Below, piece by piece: positions 1,193 through 32,411 of a stretch of DNA of 64,000 nt. Each line of letters begins with the position of its first letter. The stretch's first letter is position 1. The position numbers were made by a program, and so were the translations under genes. The stretch comes from a virus (taxonomy: Duplodnaviria; Heunggongvirae; Uroviricota; Caudoviricetes), in the IMG/VR virus record IMGVR_UViG_2721755712_000001. One strand, 5' to 3'. Below the pieces are notes generated by a model. The model saw nothing but the letters and a program-made list of their open reading frames with translations, was not told the origin of the DNA and ran no database searches.

Positions 1193-4100
1193 TTACTTAT
1201 TTATTGTCTCCGCGATATCAGCCAGAATGGCCTCCAGTCGCTCTCCTTCTTCCGGTCGGAAGTACAGGATATTCGGGTTAAATCCGTAGAAGACGGTTGC
1301 ATCAAGCTCTGGGAAGTACTCCTTACGACCAATCAGATCTGATGGTTTACTCTTATTGTTAAATAGTGCGGTTGAACGACTACCACACGTCAAAATGTAG
1401 GTTGGTCGTACAAGATTAATTTCTTCCCGCATAAAGTCTGTGAACTGGCCTATCTCGTCTTTGGTATAGTCTTTCTCTTTGTCCTTAACCTTCTTACAAA
1501 CACCCGTGACATAAAGATCGCCCATGCGCAGATCTCCAACTGTCAGTAGTTTTGCCTTAAAGTCGTCGTATCCGTTCTCCATGAAGTAGCCGGTACGAGC
1601 GTCATTGCCGTTCGCATTGTCCAGAATGATCATGATTTTGGGTTTAATACCAATAGTCGGGCGTATCAACTCCTCACCCAAGCCCATTTCAGCCGCCATA
1701 CGTGTCATGAGTACGTTGATTTCGGCAGAACGCTTAGGATTCATTTCGAACGGACGTGATGCTTTAACAGCGTCAATGATGAGATTGCCCATCAGCTCAG
1801 CCTGGTCGCGCAGTCGTTCAGGATCAGTTGCTGGCAGACTGCCTGGCTCAATTGACGCAAAAGCCCCTACTTTATGAAGCGACTCGCGTACACGACTGTT
1901 ACATGCACGCTTCTCGACCGCTTCATCGAATTGTGCCACTGACTCGAATTTGCCACCAACTTTCTCACGCGCACGCATAATTGCCTGACAACCATTTTCA
2001 GAACAGCCTTTCACAGCAGAGAATGGCGCATACAGTGCCTGACTGCCGTCTTCGAGTGTGCGGATCTCAATTCGGTTAGATGACACATTAACGTCTGGTG
2101 GCAATACGCGAATGCCATAGGTCAGCGCATCCTTCACCAGCCCCTGATGCTTATCCTCGCCCAGAATGGTGAGCGCAGCTGCGAAGAACTCAGCAGGGTA
2201 GTGCGTCTTTAGCCACATAGACTGATAACTGATTAAAGAATAAGCAACGGAGTGTGATTTATTGAACTGATAGGCTCCGTTTTTCTCAAATGCGGTCCAG
2301 ATCTCCTTCGCTTTCATCTCTGATAGCCCTGGATGTGACGCTGTAACGCGTACTGCGTTTATAGGTAGTTTTGCGCCGTGCTCAAGTGCCTCTTCGACAG
2401 TTTTCAGAGTTCCGTCTTCGCATTTAAAATGTTCCGCACGGTGAATGCGCTGTGTAGTGCCATCTTCCAGCTCAACGTCTATCCAGCCAGCTTGAGCCTG
2501 AACGATGAACTTCTCGCCCATGCTCTTCATTTTTTCCATGTTCTTCTTACCGATTGCGGAACGCACAGCGTCAGCTTCAGCCATTGTGAAGCCGGCAAGC
2601 AATCGAGTCGCGTTCATCGTCTGTTCCTGATAGAGAATCACGCCATTTGTTTCCGCGGTAAGTTCATCAAGAACGGGGTGTAATGATTCCGGCGTCATAA
2701 AGCCTTTGGCGACAGAAACATAGTCATCCAACATGCCTGATTGAATTGGCCCCGGCCGGAAGAGCGCAGTTGTAGCGACGACCGTTTTAAAGCTCATTGG
2801 CTCAATTCCACCACCTAAATCTTTAAGCAGCTTGCGCATTGGGCCTGATTCAAGCTGGAAAACACCTTGAGTGTACCCAGCAGCAAAACCATCCAGCACC
2901 TTGCGATCTTCAAGAGAAATGGCATCAAGATTGATATCTTCACCTGTGTTCTCTTTTATGTAGCGTTTTGCACTATCGAGCAAATCGAGAGTTGCCAGGC
3001 CAAGCACGTCCAGCTTAATTAGGCCCATAGCCTCGCAGTAACGCTTGTCAAATGCGATACAACGCGCGTCACCACGGCGCTCAACCGGTGTACGTTCTGT
3101 CAGAGGAACACCTGCTACGATCATCCCTGCCGCATGTCTACCAAAGCCACGCATAAGGCTTTGTAACTTGCAGGCTGCATTGAATGCATCAGGATATTTT
3201 GTTGCGTATTTGTCGAGACTTGCCAGTTGTTCGCGCAGCTCTTCCAATGGAAGGCTATCATCCTCGACGTTCTTCAGTTCTTTTGATACCGCCATATCTG
3301 CGGACTCCACACCATAAATACGAGCGGTATCACGTAGTGCAGAGGCTGCGCCCAGGTAGGTGAAGTTCGGAATACCCGCAACGTAATCTTCGCCGTAGCG
3401 TTCATTCAGATACTCGATCACCTCATGGCGACGTGCCTGGCTGAAGTCCAAGTCCGCATCCGGCAAGTCGAGACGCTCAGGGTTGATGAAACGCTCAAAC
3501 AGAAGACCGTGACGGATTGGGTCGACGTTGGTTATGCCTATGCACCACGCCACCAGAGAACCGGCAGAGGAACCACGACCAGGCCCAACGGGAATGCCAG
3601 TTTCACGACTATGATTCATCAGATCGCGTACCATCAGGAAGTAACCACAAAATCCCAGGCGAGTCAGCGTGTCCATTTCGTACTTTAGCCGCTCAACATA
3701 AACCCTGTTCTCAGAAGCAGGTGGTGTGTAGCCAAACTCTTTTGTGGTAAGACGTTTACGCAGCCCTGCAACAGCCAGTTTCATAAGCGTTGCAGGCTCG
3801 TCGTCTGCCATCTTTGGCAGTGCTGGCGGCAATTCATGCCAGCGCCATGTGCAGGCATCGATAATGGTATCCTGCGTTGTTGAGGCCATTGCAGCTGTTA
3901 CCGGCACATCCATGCGAACGGAGAAGGCTTTAAGCGCCTCAAGGAGATGGCGGCGACCATTGACGGCGTTATCTCGCTGGTGGGGGATACGCAGACGATG
4001 CGGCTGGTCGATTTTGATGTTGTTCGTAACCATGTGCGCAATGTCTTTAATGTCTGCATCGTCGATCGATTCGTAATAAGCGGGATAGAACGCCACTGGC

Positions 4101-24584: not shown

Positions 24585-24944
24585 TTAACCTTTCTTCATC
24601 AACTCTCGTTTGATTTCATCGGTACGCATCGTGACATCGGCAGCGGTGATCGCCTCATTCAATTTCACGATGTCCTCGATTTCCTGCGGTGACTTCTCTG
24701 CCAGATGGAAAATGGCTGCTCGAATCACGTCAGAACGAGTGAACTTCTCGAAGCGAGGGATGAACTTCATCATCTCCAGCAGTTCGAAGTATTCGTCCTC
24801 CAGTGACATTGTGCGGCTTTTAATTTTCTCTTTGCCACGAGTCGGGCGTCCCTGTGGTCTGACTGGTTGGCGCAAAGGAGTTGTGTTCTTAGCCGGTGCA
24901 TCAGGCTCTTTGCGCTTTGCTAGGTCACCCATTTTCATGGACAT
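24585..24944 (-). CDS. partition centromere-binding protein, ribbon-helix-helix (ParG-like)
   Basis: 119 aa; basic disordered N-terminus then C-terminal RHH-like segment; stop/start overlap with the parA-like gene. Confidence 0.5.
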   Translation of the reverse strand: MSMKMGDLAKRKEPDAPAKNTTPLRQPVRPQGRPTRGKEKIKSRTMSLEDEYFELLEMMKFIPRFEKFTRSDVIRAAIFHLAEKSPQEIEDIVKLNEAITAADVTMRTDEIKRELMKKG

Positions 24945-25612
24945 TATTCTTCTTCCTCCAGACTCAACAGATAATCTACAAATTCTTCAAACTCGGCTTC
25001 CGCCTTTTTGTCGCGCTCGCTACCGGTCATTTCAAAGATAGAACGACCAGACTCTTCCGCATCATCATAGACGTTGCGGTTATATAGATTGACTGGCGCA
25101 GACTCGATTCCAAACGTCTCAACAATCTCTTTAGCCGCCAGAATGCGAGACACTTGTGATGGCAAAGCCGGGCACTGGTTCATGACCGCGCGGACCTTCA
25201 CTTTATCGTTTACATTGCGAACATTGTCGATAATAGGATCGATGTCACGTAAAGATTTCAAATCACGACGCTTAGGACGCAGCGGGATAATGATAACGTC
25301 AGCCATCAGCATCGCTTGTCGCTGAATTTCGGAGTCGAAGCCACCAGCATCTACCACTACAAACTCAGCTCTACCCTGAAGCGATTTTAGGTGCTTAATG
25401 ATGTCATCCTGAACGTATGCAAAAGGAATCAGCTCAAGGTCTTCGTTCTGTCGACGGTCTTCACACCAGCTCGTTGTCGTGCGCTGAATATCTATATCGG
25501 TAATATAAACCTTCTTCTTCTTTTTGACTTTCAGGCAAACGGCAATTTGCTGGGCAACGGTGGATTTGCCAGGCCCGCCCTTTGTGCCGCCAACCACAAA
25601 GATCTTGGTCAT
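24944..25612 (-). CDS. parA: ParA-family partition ATPase (small, type Ib-like)
   Basis: 222 aa; deviant Walker A GGTKGGPGKST near the N-terminus. Confidence 0.8.
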   Translation of the reverse strand: MTKIFVVGGTKGGPGKSTVAQQIAVCLKVKKKKKVYITDIDIQRTTTSWCEDRRQNEDLELIPFAYVQDDIIKHLKSLQGRAEFVVVDAGGFDSEIQRQAMLMADVIIIPLRPKRRDLKSLRDIDPIIDNVRNVNDKVKVRAVMNQCPALPSQVSRILAAKEIVETFGIESAPVNLYNRNVYDDAEESGRSIFEMTGSERDKKAEAEFEEFVDYLLSLEEEE

Positions 25613-25930
25613 TGGAGAGTTCCCTTTGCGTATATAATTATCGTCTGAAACAACTTGTTTTCTTATATGTGATATAGCCTAAATGCCTACGGCTGCGGTG
25701 TAAAGGTTAAATGGTAGGTTGTGATTAACAATTGGCAATCATAGCTTGTATTTGTCTGTTGAAAAAAGTAACAATGACCTCTATATTACAAGTACGGTGA
25801 TATGCCGTACACAATTTGATAATGCACACGTAATGGGCTATAGCCTTTTAAAGTAATTTTTGAGTCGAAAACTCAGTTTGAACAGAGGAGATTGATGGCC
25901 TTCCTACATCACGGCCATCAGGAGGAATAC

Positions 25931-26200
25931 ATGTCAGCACTAAAAAAGCAGCGCATCGATTTGAGATTAACCGATGACGATAAAAGCATCATCGAGGAAG
26001 CTGCCGCAATGTCTAACCAGAGCATTACTCAGTTTATGGTTAGCAGTGCATCTGAACGTGCCGTGAAAGTTATAGAGCAACACCGTAGACTAGTTCTGAA
26101 TGAAGAATCCTGGAATCTGGTTATGGACGCTATAAGCAATCCTCCGGCACCGAACGACAAGCTGAAACGAGCTGCTGATCGTCTGAAAAGCATGGAGTAG
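25931..26200 (+). CDS. antitoxin, RHH/DUF1778-like (TacA-like)
   Basis: small protein immediately upstream of and coupled to a GNAT gene; start placed at internal Met MSALKKQRIDLRL; the track ORF begins at 25892. Confidence 0.6.
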   Translation: MSALKKQRIDLRLTDDDKSIIEEAAAMSNQSITQFMVSSASERAVKVIEQHRRLVLNEESWNLVMDAISNPPAPNDKLKRAADRLKSME

Positions 26201-26207
26201 TTTACTC

Positions 26208-26729
26208 GTGAGCAATACAACGATAGAGATTTTCTCTGGAGAGAAAGATTATGATCTAAACGGTTTTGATTGCGGCGAAGAGTCACTAAACGCCTTTTTA
26301 GCCAACCACTTAAAAAGGCAGCATGAGGGAAAAATTCTTCGTGCTTATGTGCTTTGCACTCAAGAAGAAAGGCCAAAAGTGTTAGGATATTACACTTTGT
26401 CAGGTAGTTGTTTTGAAAAGGAGTCCTTACCTTCAAGAAGCAAACAAAAGAAGGTTCCTTATCGGAATGTTCCAAGTGTCACTTTGGGTAGGCTGGCTTT
26501 GGACAAGTCCCTTCAAGGTCAAGGATTTGGCTCAATGCTTGTAACACATGCAATGCGCGTTGTGTACAATGCATCTCTTGCTGTAGGCATTCATGGGCTT
26601 TTCGTTGAGGCGTTAAATGACAAAGCCAAGGCGTTTTATAAAAGTTTAGGCTTTATCCAGCTGGTTGGTAACAACGAGCGTTCTTTGTTCTATCCTACAA
26701 AATCTATCGAAAAATTGTTCGAAGAATAA
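26208..26729 (+). CDS. GNAT-family acetyltransferase toxin (TacT-like)
   Basis: 173 aa; acetyl-CoA binding motif QGQGFGSMLV; 8 bp after the antitoxin gene. Confidence 0.65.
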   Translation: MSNTTIEIFSGEKDYDLNGFDCGEESLNAFLANHLKRQHEGKILRAYVLCTQEERPKVLGYYTLSGSCFEKESLPSRSKQKKVPYRNVPSVTLGRLALDKSLQGQGFGSMLVTHAMRVVYNASLAVGIHGLFVEALNDKAKAFYKSLGFIQLVGNNERSLFYPTKSIEKLFEE

Positions 26730-26761
26730 TGTGTTCCCCTCATTTGAGGGGAACTTCGACA

Positions 26762-26947
26762 TCACCAACCACAAACCCTCTCTCCCATCGTATTGTGAAA
26801 AAGGATTTGGCGTTCGGTTTCTTCAGTCATTACATCATTATTGCTGATATAGATAGGCTCAGCCCCATCGCAGAACAACACGCTGGCTGTTTGTGGTTTA
26901 ATGACGCACCCACTTATCATACAACTCACGATGAACGGCAGAAGCAT
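26762..26947 (-). CDS. putative o-spanin (Rz1-like outer-membrane lipoprotein), overlapping the i-spanin gene
   Basis: alternate-frame ORF starting inside the i-spanin gene; predicted start MLLPFIVSCMISGC with lipobox ISGC; short Cys-containing mature peptide. Confidence 0.45.
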   Translation of the reverse strand: MLLPFIVSCMISGCVIKPQTASVLFCDGAEPIYISNNDVMTEETERQILFHNTMGERVCGW

Positions 26948-27149
26948 CTTTCTGACGTATTTTACTGCTCGTCTCATTCACCACTTTCACTGTGTTTTGA
27001 AGTCGTTTTCTGTCTTCCTGTTTTGCCTTCTCTTCCATTGCTCGTCGCGCCGCATTCCCGCCCATCGTGTAAGCGCCGACAAGAACGAAAAGAACGGCAG
27101 CCAGCGTAATCAAAGCAACTTTTAGCTTTGTCATCAGGCTGCCTAGCAT
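26898..27149 (-). CDS. putative i-spanin (Rz-like type II membrane protein)
   Basis: 83 aa; N-terminal TM LKVALITLAAVLFVLVGAY followed by a charged coiled-coil-like periplasmic region. Confidence 0.5.
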   Translation of the reverse strand: MLGSLMTKLKVALITLAAVLFVLVGAYTMGGNAARRAMEEKAKQEDRKRLQNTVKVVNETSSKIRQKDASAVHRELYDKWVRH

Positions 27150-27150
27150 A

Positions 27151-27870
27151 TTAGACCATCCCTTTCTGGTGTTTTCTTACCTGCGACCAGGCAATGAATC
27201 CTGCCACAACAATAGTGGCAATACCGAAGATGATGCGTACTGTATCCCCGCTAGAGATATGACCTTGTGCTTTATCCATAGCAGCGGAAACCTGCGGCAT
27301 AACATCGGCCAGCTGCGCCAGACCAATACCTGCTGTAACAGTTGCGCCTGCGGTTTCTTTAGTTACAGGAACAGCCTTCACGGTTTTCACCGGCTTAACA
27401 ACGCCAGCTCGACGCAGACCTTCCTCAATAACTTCTGCCGCATACCAGGTGTTCAGCGTTTTTAGCGGGCCTCGGCCATTCTCGTGGCGAATGATTGCCT
27501 CAACCAAAGGTCGAAGGATGTCGTAATCATGCAGATCGATGATCATGTCTGCGGTTACACCAACGGCTTTAGACACCTCATTAATGTAGGCGTCAGTATT
27601 GTTTTCATTCGGCGGTGCCCAGCGTTCAATAACTTCACGAATGGTATCGATACTTGTGCCGTCTTTTGCGCGACGTTTGTCGTGGTAGGTAATTAGAGTC
27701 ACCGCCAGCGCACGAATCCCCCAAACAGGGTCTTTAAACGTGCAAAAGCGCGGTTCGTCTGGATTCGCAACCAGACCTTGCCACGGTGATCCTTTATCAA
27801 GATTACCGGGGTTATTATTACGAATGCCTCTCGGAGTCTTCATCCTTGATCTCCTGTTATTGCAGTCCAT
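27151..27870 (-). CDS. putative peptidoglycan hydrolase (endolysin candidate) with C-terminal TM segment
   Basis: 239 aa; lies between holin-like and spanin genes; conserved-looking GIRNNNPGNL motif; C-terminal hydrophobic helix IIFGIATIVVAGFIAW; enzymatic class not determined. Confidence 0.4.
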   Translation of the reverse strand: MDCNNRRSRMKTPRGIRNNNPGNLDKGSPWQGLVANPDEPRFCTFKDPVWGIRALAVTLITYHDKRRAKDGTSIDTIREVIERWAPPNENNTDAYINEVSKAVGVTADMIIDLHDYDILRPLVEAIIRHENGRGPLKTLNTWYAAEVIEEGLRRAGVVKPVKTVKAVPVTKETAGATVTAGIGLAQLADVMPQVSAAMDKAQGHISSGDTVRIIFGIATIVVAGFIAWSQVRKHQKGMV

Positions 27871-28192
27871 TTTTTACGCCATACGCGGCTAACCCCAAAA
27901 GCAGTGCAGTAATAATGAACGACGTTATTTTAGAAACAATGCCGCCAAAGAACCCACTGGAGATGGAATCTAACCGGTTAAGGAGTTTGTCCAGATTGGA
28001 GTGTTGAATACTATGTTGCGCCGGGGTCATATCACCAAAGTAGGTTTTCAGCTGATCATTGACCTCCTGGCCAATTTCTTCACGTAGCTCTTTACCTAAT
28101 TTACCAACAACCTCCCGAGCAACGATCGCGGCAATACGCTCAACTTGCTCTGTTGTAACGCCCGCCATCTCGTTCGACATGTTTTCCTCCAT
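27857..28192 (-). CDS. putative holin-like membrane protein
   Basis: 111 aa with a single C-terminal TM helix ITSFIITALLLGLAAYGV; overlaps the start of the endolysin candidate. Confidence 0.35.
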   Translation of the reverse strand: MEENMSNEMAGVTTEQVERIAAIVAREVVGKLGKELREEIGQEVNDQLKTYFGDMTPAQHSIQHSNLDKLLNRLDSISSGFFGGIVSKITSFIITALLLGLAAYGVKNGLQ

Positions 28193-28382
28193 GAAAAGTC
28201 AAATCGGGATGGCGGATTTATATCACATTTCACCCTTTTGTTGTAGGTGTGTACTTACCTATCTATGTATATACCGTTTAACGGCTGTTCAAATTCGTAT
28301 CTAGTAACTCACTAATATATCCCTATGATTGCGGCTGTGAGATCGCATTTTAAACCTCACAGCCATATAAATAATGTCTAAA

Positions 28383-31300
28383 TCAGTTACTTGTTGCCCC
28401 AACAGTACCGGCAAATTTCAGCCATTGACCTGACGGACTTCTATTACTGCGGTAGTGATAAACGAGGATTGCGTTTGTCACTCCACCGTAATCAGCTTTA
28501 TGTGACGTTGTTAAACGAATTGTATAATCACCGTTAGGTAGATTAAAAACTTCGATTATAGATTCTGCTAATTCTACAGCACCAAATCCCGTTATATTGT
28601 TGATACTGCCAGCATTGAATCCCATAGCATCGCCAAAGCCAATCCAATATCTTTTGCTAAACGCCCCATTTGATTTAAGGTGGCTAATGAATGTGGACAA
28701 ACTCATGCCCATATCCCCACCTGAAATAGAGGAAGTTCGCACAGTCATGCTTGGAAGAGCACTGCTCTTCACATAGGAACTTAGAAGATTCGTTACCTCT
28801 GTTTTCGTATAAGCATTAAGGTTAGCCGCAGTCAAAGTAATATCGGCAGAGCCATCAAACGCCACACCAGCAATTTTCCTTGCTGTCTGCAATTTTGTGG
28901 CGGTTGCTGCATTGCCAGTTGTATTCTGATTGCCAGTGGCATTCACACCAGGAATGGAGTCCCTTGATGTATATACCTGCGCCCACGCTGACCATGCCGC
29001 ATCTGTGGTATCTCTTCGTGAGCGAATGAAAACTGGCGCATGTGCACCGCTCGTACCACTCCAGCCAATAAGCAACTCGCCCTCACCAGCAGCACTCGCA
29101 CCTTTCATGTGCAATACGTTGCCATACGTGGTCGGGTAGCTAGTGCTGTACGCCTCGTACATTTGAATGCCAGCAGTGCCTTGAGTAGAGCCGCTTAACG
29201 CCGTAACTCGGCCACGAGATACCAATGTATTAATATTGATATCGCCTGAACCATCAAACTTAACACCATTGATGTTTCTCGCTGTTTGCAACTTCGTAGC
29301 AGTAGCCGCGTTGCCCGTTGTATTCTGATTACCTGCCGTATTTACACCAGGCAAATTTATGTTCGCAGATCCATCGAAGGCCACGCCGCCGATAGTTCTT
29401 GCAGTCTGCAATTTCGTTGCTGTAGCAGCATTTCCTGAAAGACTTGAAATAAATGGATGTGAACAGTAATAACCTCGTCCATTTTTAAAGTCCAAAATTA
29501 TCTGTGCATTCGTACTTTCTGATAAAGGATCAGTTGCCCCCCACTTATAAGTGGTTTGACCAACTGCATAATCAGCCGTTGGAACAATTACGTTCAAGCC
29601 CTCCTCAGCAAATATCTTGATAGGGAATGCTCTGGCTTCAACGTAAAATACACTACACAAATCGTCATCTTTCACACTTGAAATAATCGAGTGTATAGCT
29701 CGCTCAGCAGTAGAATATATTGAGAAAAAACCAGCCGCATATGAACCGCGATCAGACCAACCGCCAGGCATAACAAACCCATTAAATTCACAATTATTCA
29801 TGGCGTATCCGCCAACTGAGGAACCAGTAGTTATCACAACTCGTGAGGCTAATTCATCGGTACTGCCTCTAGATCGGCGAAAGACTATAGGATACCACTT
29901 ACCGCTTACTGCATTTGCAGGCGCTGAAAAAGTGTATTTTCTCATCCCTTTTTTATTGTCTATTTCGCTTTTGCTGTATACGTCAAGGTTCGCAGGAGTC
30001 AGCGTTATGTCCGCAGAACCATCAAACTTAACACCGTTGATTGTACGCGCTGTCTGTAGTTTTGTAGCGGTTGCAGCATTGCCGGTAGTGCTCTGATTAC
30101 CAGCCGTATTAACACCTGGCAAATTAATATTCGCAGTACCATCAAAGCTCACGCCGCCGATAGTTCTTGCCGTCTGAAGTTTTGTAGCAGTTGCAGCATT
30201 ACCAGTGGTGTTCTGATTACCCGTAGTATTTACACCTGGAAGGTTGATATTTGCAGAACCGTCGAAACCAACTCCACCGATAGATCTTGCCGTCTGCAAT
30301 TTCGTTGCTGTACTTGCATTACCATTTAATGTTCCGGTGATACCACCAGTAACAGACAACGGACCTGAAACTGTTCCTCCGGTTGTTGGCAGTGCTCCAA
30401 TATCTAACGGCGTCGGTTTCTGATGTGTGCTATACATCGTATAAACAACACCATCGGTAACGCTGGAAGGCTTACTCGCTGAATATGTTGGCGATGTATA
30501 AATAGAAACTGACGCATTTGCAGTACAATCCCAATGGATATTTACACTCGTCGCATAATTGCCAATTTCAACGTAAATATCATATGTATCGCCGGATGTG
30601 TTGATCCAGGCGAAATTCGCTAATCCGACAGCTGTACGCTTCCACAAAGCACCTGTAATTCCTTTGGGGTTTCCATTGCCTGCTCGTAGAACCAGTTCTG
30701 AAATGCCTGCCTGATGTGGGGAACCGACGTTGTAACCAGCGCCACCAATCAATGCGATGTAAACGATGGAACTCGCTTGTGGCATGGTAACCGTAGCCAG
30801 TTTGAACCACCCTGCCCCGCCAGAGAAAGACATCGTTACTGAATTTAAAGTACCAATATCTTTCGGCGTTAATGTGATATCCGCAGTCAGTGCTTTTCCG
30901 TTAACTTTTCGGTTAGATGGCACCCTGCTATTCGCATTGTCATTGGCTGCTTTAACTGCTTTTGGCGTTGCGGCCAGCGATTCACTGGTGCTGTCGACAG
31001 CACTGCTAAGTTTCACAACACCTTTAGTTGTAAGGCTTGCGTCTTCCATCGCAACTGCACCGGCAATCTCTTCAGCACGATCAGCAGCAGCTTCCGCACG
31101 GGTCGCAGCGGATTCAGCAGCAGTTTTGCTCTGAGATGCTGCCGTCGCACTGCCTGCCGCCTCTGTTGCTTTCGTGGATGCCGTCGTGGCGCTGCCCTTC
31201 GCTGCTGACGCCTGTCTGGTCGCCTCATCTTTTGAAGCAGACGCCGATGATGCCGATGACGCCGCCGAACTGGCGGACGATGCGGCTGCCGTTTTTGAGG

Positions 31301-32411
31301 ATTCTGCACGGTTTTCCGACGCTTTCGCGTTCGTTTCGGATGTCTTCGCTGCGGAAGCAGACCTCGCTGCTGCGCTGGCCTGTTCAGTGGCTTGGCCAGC
31401 CTTCGTTGTGGCTGTTGAAGCAGACGATGCGGCACTTTCTGCCGATTTTCCGGCGGCGGTGGCACTGGCTGAGGCCTGCCCGGCACTTGTTGACGCGGCA
31501 CTGGCAGACGACGCAGCCGCTGTTTTTGAGCCTGCCGCAGCCGAGGCGCTCTGTCCCGCTGCCGTTTCAGAAGACCTGGCGTTCGTCTCGGACGTTTTTG
31601 CCGCCTTCGCGGAATTTCCTGCCGCCGTTGCCGAGGAAGCGGCATTACTGGCGCTCGAGGCTGCGCTCGTTTCTGATGATTTCGCTGCCTCTTTTGAGGC
31701 CGCCGCATCCCGGGCTGAGGTGGCAGCTTCTGACGCCTTCGTGGTCGCGGTGGATGCAGAAGTGGCTGCAGATTTTTGTGACGCTGCAGCATTCGTTTCA
31801 GATTTTTTCGCAGCAGTTGCACTCGCACTTGCGGCACTTTGTGAGGATGCCGCAGCGGATGCACTTTGAGACGCTTGAGAGGCTTTTTCTCCAGCGGCAT
31901 TGGCGCTTTTTGCTGCTGCGGCAGCACTGGCCGCCGCCTCACGAGCTTTGTCGCCAGCAGCATCAATCGCGTCAGTGTTATTTTTATACCACTCAACGTT
32001 TTCGTTGTGCTCGTTGACGATCTGCATTAGCGGCTTAACGGTCACTTCTGTACCGTCTTCACGCTCGATTGTCACCTCATCCAGCGCAGTCAACCAACTG
32101 CGTATGGACTTGGAATCAGCCGACATACGCGACATTAGCGCAGTAAAGCGCGCGCTAAACTGTGTTAAGTCGCCTTCATAGGTCGTAATGATTCGGCACG
32201 GAACCTCAGACTGAGTTTCGCCGGTATAAGGTTCTGAGAGAACAATATTCGTATCGCTTATTACGCGCTTGATCTCGTACAGCTTATTGTCGGGGCCAAT
32301 GACGATCATCCCCGGCAACACACCATTAGCTGTTACGTTCCAGGCTGTCCCTGCCCCAACCAGAGTATTGCTACCCTGTGTAAATGTGATAGTACCTTCC
32401 CTGTACCACAT
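28383..32411 (-). CDS. tail fibre protein with Ala/Ser-rich region and repeated fibre motifs
   Basis: 1342 aa; about 300-aa Ala/Ser/Thr low-complexity tract; at least five copies of ...NTTGNAATATKLQTAR.IGGV.FDGSANINLPGVN... Confidence 0.8.
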   Translation of the reverse strand: MWYREGTITFTQGSNTLVGAGTAWNVTANGVLPGMIVIGPDNKLYEIKRVISDTNIVLSEPYTGETQSEVPCRIITTYEGDLTQFSARFTALMSRMSADSKSIRSWLTALDEVTIEREDGTEVTVKPLMQIVNEHNENVEWYKNNTDAIDAAGDKAREAAASAAAAAKSANAAGEKASQASQSASAAASSQSAASASATAAKKSETNAAASQKSAATSASTATTKASEAATSARDAAASKEAAKSSETSAASSASNAASSATAAGNSAKAAKTSETNARSSETAAGQSASAAAGSKTAAASSASAASTSAGQASASATAAGKSAESAASSASTATTKAGQATEQASAAARSASAAKTSETNAKASENRAESSKTAAASSASSAASSASSASASKDEATRQASAAKGSATTASTKATEAAGSATAASQSKTAAESAATRAEAAADRAEEIAGAVAMEDASLTTKGVVKLSSAVDSTSESLAATPKAVKAANDNANSRVPSNRKVNGKALTADITLTPKDIGTLNSVTMSFSGGAGWFKLATVTMPQASSIVYIALIGGAGYNVGSPHQAGISELVLRAGNGNPKGITGALWKRTAVGLANFAWINTSGDTYDIYVEIGNYATSVNIHWDCTANASVSIYTSPTYSASKPSSVTDGVVYTMYSTHQKPTPLDIGALPTTGGTVSGPLSVTGGITGTLNGNASTATKLQTARSIGGVGFDGSANINLPGVNTTGNQNTTGNAATATKLQTARTIGGVSFDGTANINLPGVNTAGNQSTTGNAATATKLQTARTINGVKFDGSADITLTPANLDVYSKSEIDNKKGMRKYTFSAPANAVSGKWYPIVFRRSRGSTDELASRVVITTGSSVGGYAMNNCEFNGFVMPGGWSDRGSYAAGFFSIYSTAERAIHSIISSVKDDDLCSVFYVEARAFPIKIFAEEGLNVIVPTADYAVGQTTYKWGATDPLSESTNAQIILDFKNGRGYYCSHPFISSLSGNAATATKLQTARTIGGVAFDGSANINLPGVNTAGNQNTTGNAATATKLQTARNINGVKFDGSGDININTLVSRGRVTALSGSTQGTAGIQMYEAYSTSYPTTYGNVLHMKGASAAGEGELLIGWSGTSGAHAPVFIRSRRDTTDAAWSAWAQVYTSRDSIPGVNATGNQNTTGNAATATKLQTARKIAGVAFDGSADITLTAANLNAYTKTEVTNLLSSYVKSSALPSMTVRTSSISGGDMGMSLSTFISHLKSNGAFSKRYWIGFGDAMGFNAGSINNITGFGAVELAESIIEVFNLPNGDYTIRLTTSHKADYGGVTNAILVYHYRSNRSPSGQWLKFAGTVGATSN

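Follow-up and report, generated by a model that had tools for sequence, protein, structure and literature searches.

RESULTS

A very probable late lysis operon in an SSU5-like phage-plasmid

The DNA analyzed here, referred to as the window, is a stretch of 64,000 nucleotides (nt) from a virus of the Caudoviricetes (IMG/VR record IMGVR_UViG_2721755712_000001). Four genes at positions 26762 to 28192 of the window very probably constitute the late lysis operon of an SSU5-like phage-plasmid, which comprises a hairpin-tethered endolysin of the Enc34 type, a membrane protein of the phrog_5093 family, and a pair of spanins. The four open reading frames (ORFs) of the original prediction are all present, co-oriented on the minus strand, and the operon is placed directly after a tail-fiber gene. 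Over the cassette region, the identity to Escherichia phage Cyrano (plasmid pLF82 of E. coli LF82) is 99.9%, and that to Salmonella phage SSU5 is ~82% at the nucleotide level. In Cyrano, the genes CYRAN_22-25 are annotated as Holin, Endolysin, Rz spanin, and Rz1 spanin, and equivalent labels are found in SSU5 (SSU5_026-030). These annotations, together with the homology of the enzyme to the lytic proteins Enc34 ORF39 and M4Lys, support the earlier proposal of a lysis cassette.

The SSU5 and Cyrano cassettes contain the same four genes in the same order as the window, with no substantive difference. SSU5 differs in having additional genes for Cor and other membrane proteins, which lie between the tail fiber and the cassette and are absent from the window, and in Cyrano Rz1 is annotated as a fragment of 39 amino acids (aa). 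The cassette was also found in 407 plasmid records from Enterobacteriaceae, mostly nonmobilizable and of ~110 kb. Cyrano is an active phage-plasmid that produces siphovirus particles, and the paper that describes it is silent on the holin, endolysin, and spanin genes (PMC9928086).

The features of the operon, all on the minus strand, are as follows, in the order of transcription.

27857..28180, minus strand: phrog_5093 protein, 107 aa ("holin" in Cyrano and SSU5), E = 8e-69; maximal ORF 1, 28192..27857, 111 aa
27151..27843, minus strand: Enc34/M4Lys-type endolysin, 230 aa, by PHROG (phrog_873 "endolysin," E = 6.5e-89), PDB 7Q47, and Foldseek matches; maximal ORF 2, 27870..27151, 239 aa, with GIRNNNPGNL close to the N terminus
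27843..27394, minus strand: catalytic domain of the endolysin, residues 1 to ~150
27483..27481, minus strand: codon of the catalytic Glu121
27369..27154, minus strand: conserved C-terminal membrane domain of the endolysin, residues 159 to 230
27360..27268, minus strand: helix H1, residues ~162 to 192, from the AlphaFold2 (AF2) helix and hydropathy
27249..27166, minus strand: helix H2, residues ~199 to 226, an AF2 helix and strong transmembrane (TM) segment, followed by the basic tail SQVRKHQKGMV
26898..27149, minus strand: i-spanin (Rz-like), 83 aa, with an N-terminal TM segment (ORF 3, 27149..26898); phrog_1026 "Rz-like spanin," E = 7e-25
26762..26977, minus strand: o-spanin (Rz1-like) lipoprotein precursor, 71 aa, with the lipobox I-S-G-C24 (ORF 4, 26977..26762); phrog_1275 "Rz-like spanin," E = 1.3e-24

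Given these PHROG matches and the hundreds of conserved homologs of the cassette genes, the four ORFs are real genes rather than chance ORFs; searches of Pfam and NCBIfam gave no significant match for any of the four proteins, the 107-aa protein included. A GGAGG lies 5 nt upstream of the ATG at 28180, where homologs have 107 aa, and an AGGAG precedes the ATG at 27843, where homologs have 230 aa. From these Shine-Dalgarno (SD) sites and the lengths of the homologs, the true products are most likely of 107 and 230 aa, and the maximal ORFs overshoot. Therefore, the endolysin with the GIRNNNPGNL motif proposed in the original prediction keeps its identity and its motif, and its length is most likely 230 rather than 239 aa.

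Catalytic domain of the endolysin

The endolysin could be assigned by sequence and by structure. Residues 10 to 160 of the 239-aa ORF match PDB entry 7Q47 (phmmer, E = 3.9e-54), the crystal structure determined for the catalytic domain in the Hafnia phage Enc34 endolysin ORF39, whose activity has been demonstrated (PMC8943055). An AF2 model built on 44 homologs had a predicted local distance difference test score (pLDDT) of 84 to 96 over residues 31 to 150 of the catalytic domain, and a Foldseek comparison of the model with 7Q47 gave an E value of 2.5e-16, a TM-score of 0.81 (target normalized), and 59% identity. Glu131, Trp79, and Tyr95 were named as the catalytic or substrate-positioning residues of Enc34 (PMC8943055); they align to Glu121, Trp75, and Tyr86 of the protein described here, which are invariant in the 44 homologs. 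The GIRNNNPGNL sequence proved to be a conserved N-terminal signature of the family, in which N11-P12-G13-N14 are invariant in the alignment.

The hydrolase class, left unassigned in the original prediction, is thus given by profile and structure searches (phrog_873 and 7Q47): as judged from homology, the enzyme is a peptidoglycan hydrolase of the glycosidase type. Its Enc34-type fold corresponds to the alpha-lobe of the lysozyme fold and is a distant relative of GH23/GH73. N-acetylglucosaminidase-type products have been reported in the case of the homolog M4Lys (PMC7143992). The full-length homologs, with 55 to 59% identity over 99% coverage, are Chi gp38, the endolysin of Siskin, M4Lys of phage BSPM4, and Enc34 ORF39; the identity to Chi gp38 is 56% over the full length, the C-terminal domain included. 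Hydrophobic segments were located by Kyte-Doolittle scans, and none was found within residues 1 to 160 of the endolysin, the part in which a signal-anchor-release (SAR) endolysin would carry its segment.

C-terminal membrane domain of the endolysin

Downstream of the enzyme, the membrane domain consists of a P-V-T-K-E motif, the helix H1, a short loop with S-S-G, the helix H2, and the basic tail. H1 is conserved and weakly hydrophobic, with a mean Kyte-Doolittle (KD) value of 1.2 and 54 to 58% Gly/Ala/Ser/Thr, and H2 is strongly hydrophobic (KD of 2.1). Several residues within the hairpin are invariant across the family, and several of these are polar (PVTKE, Q177, P183, SSG, and Q221). On average across the family, 2.8 Lys/Arg residues precede H1, 1.1 fall within the loop, and 2.4 belong to the tail, a distribution that fits a hairpin with both ends in the cytoplasm. 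From the sequence, therefore, an N-in/loop-out/C-in topology is predicted for the endolysin. The earlier suggestion of atypical C-terminal anchors, with a single C-terminal TM segment and no N-terminal one in both the endolysin and the holin candidate, agrees with the hydropathy of the 107-aa protein; the endolysin does lack an N-terminal segment, and it has two C-terminal helices rather than one.

A tblastn search of 50,697 phage genomes with the C-terminal domain alone matched the Chi-like endolysins and returned no stand-alone (holin-like) homolog of the hairpin; the hits whose annotation was inspected were all under endolysin-type genes. An endolysin with two C-terminal TM domains, predicted as N-in/C-in, was first pointed out in the genome note on Siskin (PMC6498227). 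M4Lys lyses E. coli without a holin; azide does not block this lysis, which requires an intact transmembrane domain (TMD) and the last ~13 residues, and the TMD alone is bacteriostatic (PMC7143992). Likewise, full-length Enc34 ORF39 is toxic, and the protein without its TMD is soluble and active (PMC8943055). The C-terminally anchored architecture is thus atypical, as had been proposed, and already published between 2019 and 2022 (Siskin in 2019, M4Lys in 2020, and Enc34 in 2022).

As to more distant systems, H1 is like the SAR domains of phage 21 and P1 Lyz in being weakly hydrophobic and rich in Gly/Ala/Ser/Thr, and H1 followed by a strong H2 and a basic tail resembles the hairpin of a class II holin (pinholin S21 68). 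However, neither S21 68 nor the SAR endolysins have sequence homology to the endolysin described here, and Sec-type export as in SAR endolysins is not expected because the membrane domain is C terminal to the enzyme. A C-terminal TMD is also required for lysis and localization in LysAP of Acidovorax phage AP1 and in Xanthomonas phage lysozymes (PMC8879335). These enzymes differ in having a GH24 lysozyme fold and an unrelated TM domain; the architecture is convergent.

The resemblance to Enc34 ORF39, M4Lys, Chi gp38, and the Siskin endolysin covers the PHA02564 catalytic domain, the Trp/Tyr/Glu residues, the two-helix C-terminal domain, the basic tail, and the homologous overlapped spanins. Nevertheless, the Chi-like systems belong to Casjensviridae phages of ~59 kb, whereas the present one belongs to a phage-plasmid of ~108 kb (Cyrano), and their upstream "holin" gene is nonhomologous and encodes a TM segment near the N terminus instead of the C terminus. 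By sequence comparison, then, three cassette genes are shared with the Chi-like phages and the first gene is replaced.

Two further cassettes with this endolysin type were seen. A metagenomic contig (L015, Logan SRR30563942) carries at 3368-4063 an Enc34-type homolog within a complete homologous cassette (phrog_5093 gene, i-spanin, and overlapped o-spanin). This homolog has other residues at all three catalytic or positioning sites (ERWAPP to LDFCEY, AY to AT, and RHENG to VMYNG), and its C-terminal hairpin is well conserved; it may be a pseudo-enzyme retained for a membrane function. Aeromonas phage BUCT551 (L004, Casjensviridae) encodes at 1992-3077 an Enc34-type endolysin with the hairpin and an overlapped spanin pair. 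No small membrane-protein gene is found upstream of the BUCT551 endolysin gene, and two ORFs for membrane proteins lie downstream on the opposite strand.

Overlapped spanin pair

The start codon of the i-spanin gene lies one base past the endolysin stop codon. The protein has an N-terminal TM segment at residues ~8 to 28 (maximum KD of 2.38) followed by a charged helical periplasmic part; its identity to Chi gp39 is 26%, and a C-terminal K-W-(V/M)-R motif is common to both. The first 80 nt of the o-spanin gene overlap the i-spanin gene in a different frame, and the rest extends past the end of the latter. The hydrophobic, signal-like N terminus of the o-spanin, with the signal peptide MRRAVKYVRKMLLPFIVSCMISG, was read as MRRAVKYVRK-MLLPFIVSCM-ISG/C24-V, with the lipobox cysteine encoded at 26908..26906 (read from the sequence). 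The residue at position +2 is Val, not Asp, consistent with sorting to the outer membrane. The mature protein has 48 aa with two additional conserved cysteines, and the 51% identity to Chi gp40 (E = 1.6e-17) includes the lipobox cysteine and the two further ones.

The same overlapped o-spanin layout is found in Chi, L015, and BUCT551. In the spanin census of Kongari et al. (2018), the SSU5 pair was counted among the overlapped two-component spanins, with the o-spanin grouped with those of Chi and Enc34 and the i-spanin as a singleton family (PMC6139136). The layout also resembles the P2 LysB/LysC-type and Chi spanins, with an i-spanin anchored by an N-terminal TM segment and a lipoprotein o-spanin gene that starts within its gene and extends past it; the spanins of the window differ in being very short (83 aa, and 48 aa in the mature o-spanin) and in having an i-spanin without cysteine. 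The overlap, the spanin PHROG matches, and the matches to Chi gp39/gp40 all agree with the Rz/Rz1-type pair with an ISGC lipobox that had been described earlier. The spanins are a genuine overlapped two-component pair, in an arrangement already known.

Two public annotations differ from these observations. The Rz1 of Cyrano (39 aa, 26762-26881 of the window) begins downstream of the signal peptide and lipobox and is thus truncated relative to 26762-26977. Moreover, the RefSeq record of phage Chi labels the holin-position protein gp37 as "Rz-like spanin," which looks like a misannotation.

The phrog_5093 protein encoded by the first gene

A distance of 13 nt separates the first gene of the operon from the endolysin gene downstream. 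The 107-aa product of the first gene comprises an N-terminal part that is acidic and helical (~78 aa), the conserved motif YFGDMTPAQHSIQH, a single TM segment at residues ~80 to 103, at the extreme C terminus, and a tail of 4 to 8 residues that carries one Lys. An AF2 model of the protein was all helical and of low confidence (pLDDT of 48). An exhaustive profile search recovered ~60 more distant cluster representatives of similar size, and all 30 of the remote representatives examined belong to phrog_5093, a family of "unknown function." G49, H56, and H60 are invariant in 30 diverse members (FGDM-x4-H-x3-H), and remote members share the acidic helical N-terminal part, a juxtamembrane D-x2-S-x-N-F-W-G segment, and the extreme C-terminal TM segment. 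Conservation is highest in the TM segment and the juxtamembrane motif. A dual-start motif is not supported, as conservation in the family does not extend to the second Met of MSNEM.

Among 50,697 phage genomes, phrog_5093 was present in 12, all SSU5-like records; a tblastn search of these genomes with two remote members returned the same 12 records only, and no cultured phage outside the group. We found no experimental data on phrog_5093 members in the literature searched.

The 107-aa protein resembles holins in being a small membrane protein, with one TM segment, encoded beside an endolysin gene. Neither the cassette nor the window as a whole encodes another small nonspanin membrane protein, and other small multi-TM proteins are likewise absent from the 64 kb. 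Class I holins have three TM segments, class II holins have two, and class III holins have one N-proximal segment and a large periplasmic C-terminal domain. The 107-aa protein fits none of these topologies and lacks a charged C-terminal tail. It is similar to the putative "class IV" holin of Chi and Siskin (gp37; BSPM4 ORF_37) in its position as first gene, its size (107 versus 112 aa), its single TM segment, and its long charged helical extramembrane part, and no sequence similarity was detected between it and Chi gp37, which occupies the same position. The holin candidate of the original prediction is therefore borne out in its position and its TM segment; with no match to a known holin family, it remains a candidate. 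The public "holin" label derives from gene position alone, and the protein may be a holin or a lysis regulator.

Genomic contexts of phrog_5093 relatives

The surroundings of eight remote phrog_5093 members were inspected; this sample is small and metagenomic, and one contig of 1 kb (L012) was too short to classify. In the eight contexts the phrog_5093 gene is always the first of the lysis operon and directly adjoins or overlaps the gene that follows (-4 to +13 nt between them), with the upstream genes, mostly for tail fibers, 40 to 280 nt away. The endolysin and the separate small membrane protein of each classified operon are given below.

Window: Enc34-type endolysin with its own hairpin; no separate small membrane protein
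L015: Enc34-type endolysin with its own hairpin; no separate small membrane protein
L005: Peptidase_M15_3; 2-TM protein
L010: Peptidase_M15_3; 2-TM protein
L014: Amidase_2; 2-TM-like protein homologous to that of L005
L008: endolysin with SAR-like N terminus; 3-TM PHROG "holin"
L013: endolysin with SAR-like N terminus; small membrane protein with one strong TM segment
L009: endolysin not recognized; 2-TM protein

As seen, relatives of the phrog_5093 protein head operons with four different endolysin types, and the separate membrane protein and the endolysin hairpin form a complementary pattern. This pattern allows two readings: either the phrog_5093 protein is a holin of new topology that works with accessory proteins, or it is a regulator or antiholin and the hairpin replaces the separate membrane protein.

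A gene of the PhoH family was observed within ~2 to 3 kb after the remote phrog_5093 members in L005, L009, and L014, and DnaB-family helicase genes lie downstream in L006 and L015; one contig is 114 kb long. Such contigs may be distant uncultured relatives of the SSU5-like phage-plasmids, with an exchange of the endolysin alone.

Regulatory elements and neighboring genes

Three inverted repeats were observed in or near the operon.

26733..26754: GC-rich palindrome GTTCCCCTCAAATGAGGGGAAC, between the o-spanin stop codon and the stop codon of a convergent GNAT-toxin gene; terminator-like pattern match
28162..28215, minus strand: mRNA hairpin with an 11-bp inverted repeat, enclosing the SD site and start codon of the first lysis gene
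28333..28364: perfect 9-bp inverted repeat, GGCTGTGAG N14 CTCACAGCC, just 3' of the tail-fiber stop codon and ~150 nt upstream of the lysis operon

Judged by its sequence and location, the palindrome is probably a bidirectional terminator that closes the lysis operon and the convergent transcript; the number of terminator-like sites in the region was not above shuffle expectation. The hairpin at 28162-28215 has a minimum free energy of -28.1 kcal/mol (z = -4.6 versus shuffles). A comparison of 11 distinct SSU5-like sequences showed a single compensatory pair, a switch from C-G to U-A through a synonymous change in an Ala codon, and the overall covariation was sparse and not significant. This predicted structure, which is reminiscent of the sdi structure of lambda, may control translation. 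The repeat at 28333-28364 could be a terminator or an operator. A scan for sigma-70 promoters gave results not above chance.

The genes on either side were also recorded. On the plus strand, 25892-26729 contains a 102-aa ORF for a ribbon-helix-helix-type antitoxin together with the gene of a 173-aa GNAT acetyltransferase toxin (KacT in Cyrano); this toxin-antitoxin pair is convergent with the lysis operon, and the palindrome at 26733-26754 is common to both. Positions 24944-25612 encode a ParA partition protein, and a RelE/ParE toxin is found past this gene. On the other side, at 28383-32411 (minus strand), is a tail-fiber protein of 1342 aa with a long Ala/Ser-rich low-complexity stretch and repeated units with GNAATATKLQTAR, annotated in Cyrano as a homolog of the P1 S tail fiber.

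DISCUSSION

We propose that the operon is expressed late and that the endolysin would accumulate, tethered by its hairpin, on the cytoplasmic face of the inner membrane and away from its substrate. The murein would become accessible to the catalytic domain through a timed lesion of the membrane, for which the tail-anchored phrog_5093 protein, the endolysin hairpin, or both would be responsible. Thereafter the i-spanin/o-spanin complex would, by homology with known spanins, destroy the outer membrane.

Several points weigh against this scheme. Muralytic activity and TMD-dependent lysis have been demonstrated only in the homologs Enc34 ORF39 and M4Lys (PMC8943055, PMC7143992), and M4Lys lysed cells without a holin only when overexpressed with T7. 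There is no known mechanism by which a C-terminal hairpin would let a folded N-terminal domain cross the membrane (PMC8943055), and the confidence of the AF2 model is low in the membrane domain (pLDDT of <50 for residues 159 to 198). As for the first gene, its product matches no described holin family, its charge counts do not discriminate between orientations, and in the relatives it is usually accompanied by another holin-like protein, so it need not be the hole-former.

The source of the lesion can be explained in two main ways. It is quite possible, though somewhat short of an even chance, that the 107-aa phrog_5093 protein acts as the holin, one with a new type of topology, and that its lesions release or activate the tethered endolysin. 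Its gene occupies the canonical position of a holin gene, immediately ahead of the endolysin gene, and no other small nonspanin membrane protein is available in the window. The strong conservation of its TM segment and juxtamembrane motif is also in favor, and the four endolysin types found in its operons suggest a general role in lysis that is independent of the endolysin. However, it falls outside classes I to III, it does not end in the charged tail that holins typically have, no holin family is homologous to it, and its relatives usually co-occur with another holin-like protein. Moreover, the Chi-type gene in the same position, though nonhomologous, is nontoxic when expressed (PMC7143992).

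Alternatively, and more tentatively, the endolysin may be self-sufficient, a natural endolysin-holin fusion whose hairpin forms the hole and sets the timing, with the phrog_5093 protein as an antiholin or timing regulator. M4Lys alone lyses cells in a manner that depends on its last ~13 residues, its TMD alone arrests growth, and the Chi-type gene upstream does no harm by itself and causes a slight delay in lysis (PMC7143992). The contexts described above point in the same direction: a separate protein, in most cases with two or three TM segments, stands beside the soluble or SAR-type endolysins (L005, L010, L014, L008, L013, and L009), and none is found where the endolysin has the hairpin (the window and L015). 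In addition, the invariant polar residues of the hairpin exceed the needs of a passive anchor, the L015 homolog keeps the hairpin without the catalytic residues, and BUCT551 lacks a small membrane-protein gene upstream of its endolysin gene. Nevertheless, the hairpin has no stand-alone homolog in the 50,697 phage genomes, and the complementary pattern comes from only eight contexts, all metagenomic. The order of first gene, endolysin gene, and small multi-TM gene is compatible as well with a layout like that of P2 (Y-K-lysA), where the holin is encoded first and the regulator later. Lysis upon overexpression is possibly an artifact, a caution raised by the authors of the Enc34 study (PMC8943055).

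A broader proposal, which we consider rather doubtful, joins parts of both explanations: phrog_5093 would be a new and widespread class of tail-anchored lysis proteins, a fourth- or fifth-type holin or a universal timing regulator, defined by the G..H...H motif and paired with at least four endolysin types, and the true hole-former in the SSU5- and Chi-like cassettes would be the endolysin hairpin, as a natural endolysin-holin fusion.

It is improbable that the first gene has no role in lysis and encodes a tail-fiber-associated or superinfection-exclusion membrane protein between the tail and lysis modules. Its relatives follow tail-fiber or tail-tip genes, and exclusion or membrane genes such as Cor occupy the same interval in SSU5; however, the gene abuts or overlaps the next lysis gene in every context and keeps a distance of 40 to 280 nt from the tail genes, and in L005 it is preceded by a radical-SAM gene instead of a tail gene. 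Least probable is that the 230-aa protein is a virion-associated cell wall hydrolase used in infection, as the occurrence of the same catalytic domain in tape-measure, internal-core, and "virion protein" matches and its CDD name "virion protein" (PMC7143992) would allow, since it is a short stand-alone protein with a membrane hairpin, encoded between the holin-position gene and the spanins, its full-length homologs are the demonstrated lytic proteins of Chi-like phages, and no other endolysin is annotated in the regions of Cyrano or SSU5 examined. Both the virion-lysin and the tail-associated readings were rejected on genomic context.

The cassette is already annotated in public records, and the endolysin architecture and the overlapped spanins are already in the literature. 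What the locus adds is a member of the Enc34/M4Lys endolysin class in a phage-plasmid lineage, and its first gene is the only truly uncharacterized part. The phrog_5093 family was extended here and placed in lysis operons; otherwise the cassette is an ordinary one. SSU5-like phage-plasmids are common in Enterobacteriaceae, some with extended-spectrum beta-lactamase genes, and knowledge of how they lyse their hosts is of some practical value. Overall, these results indicate that the class of membrane-tethered Enc34/M4Lys endolysins extends beyond Chi-like phages, and that its pairing with a different first gene in SSU5 is a natural swap that could serve to separate the function of the hairpin from that of the "holin."

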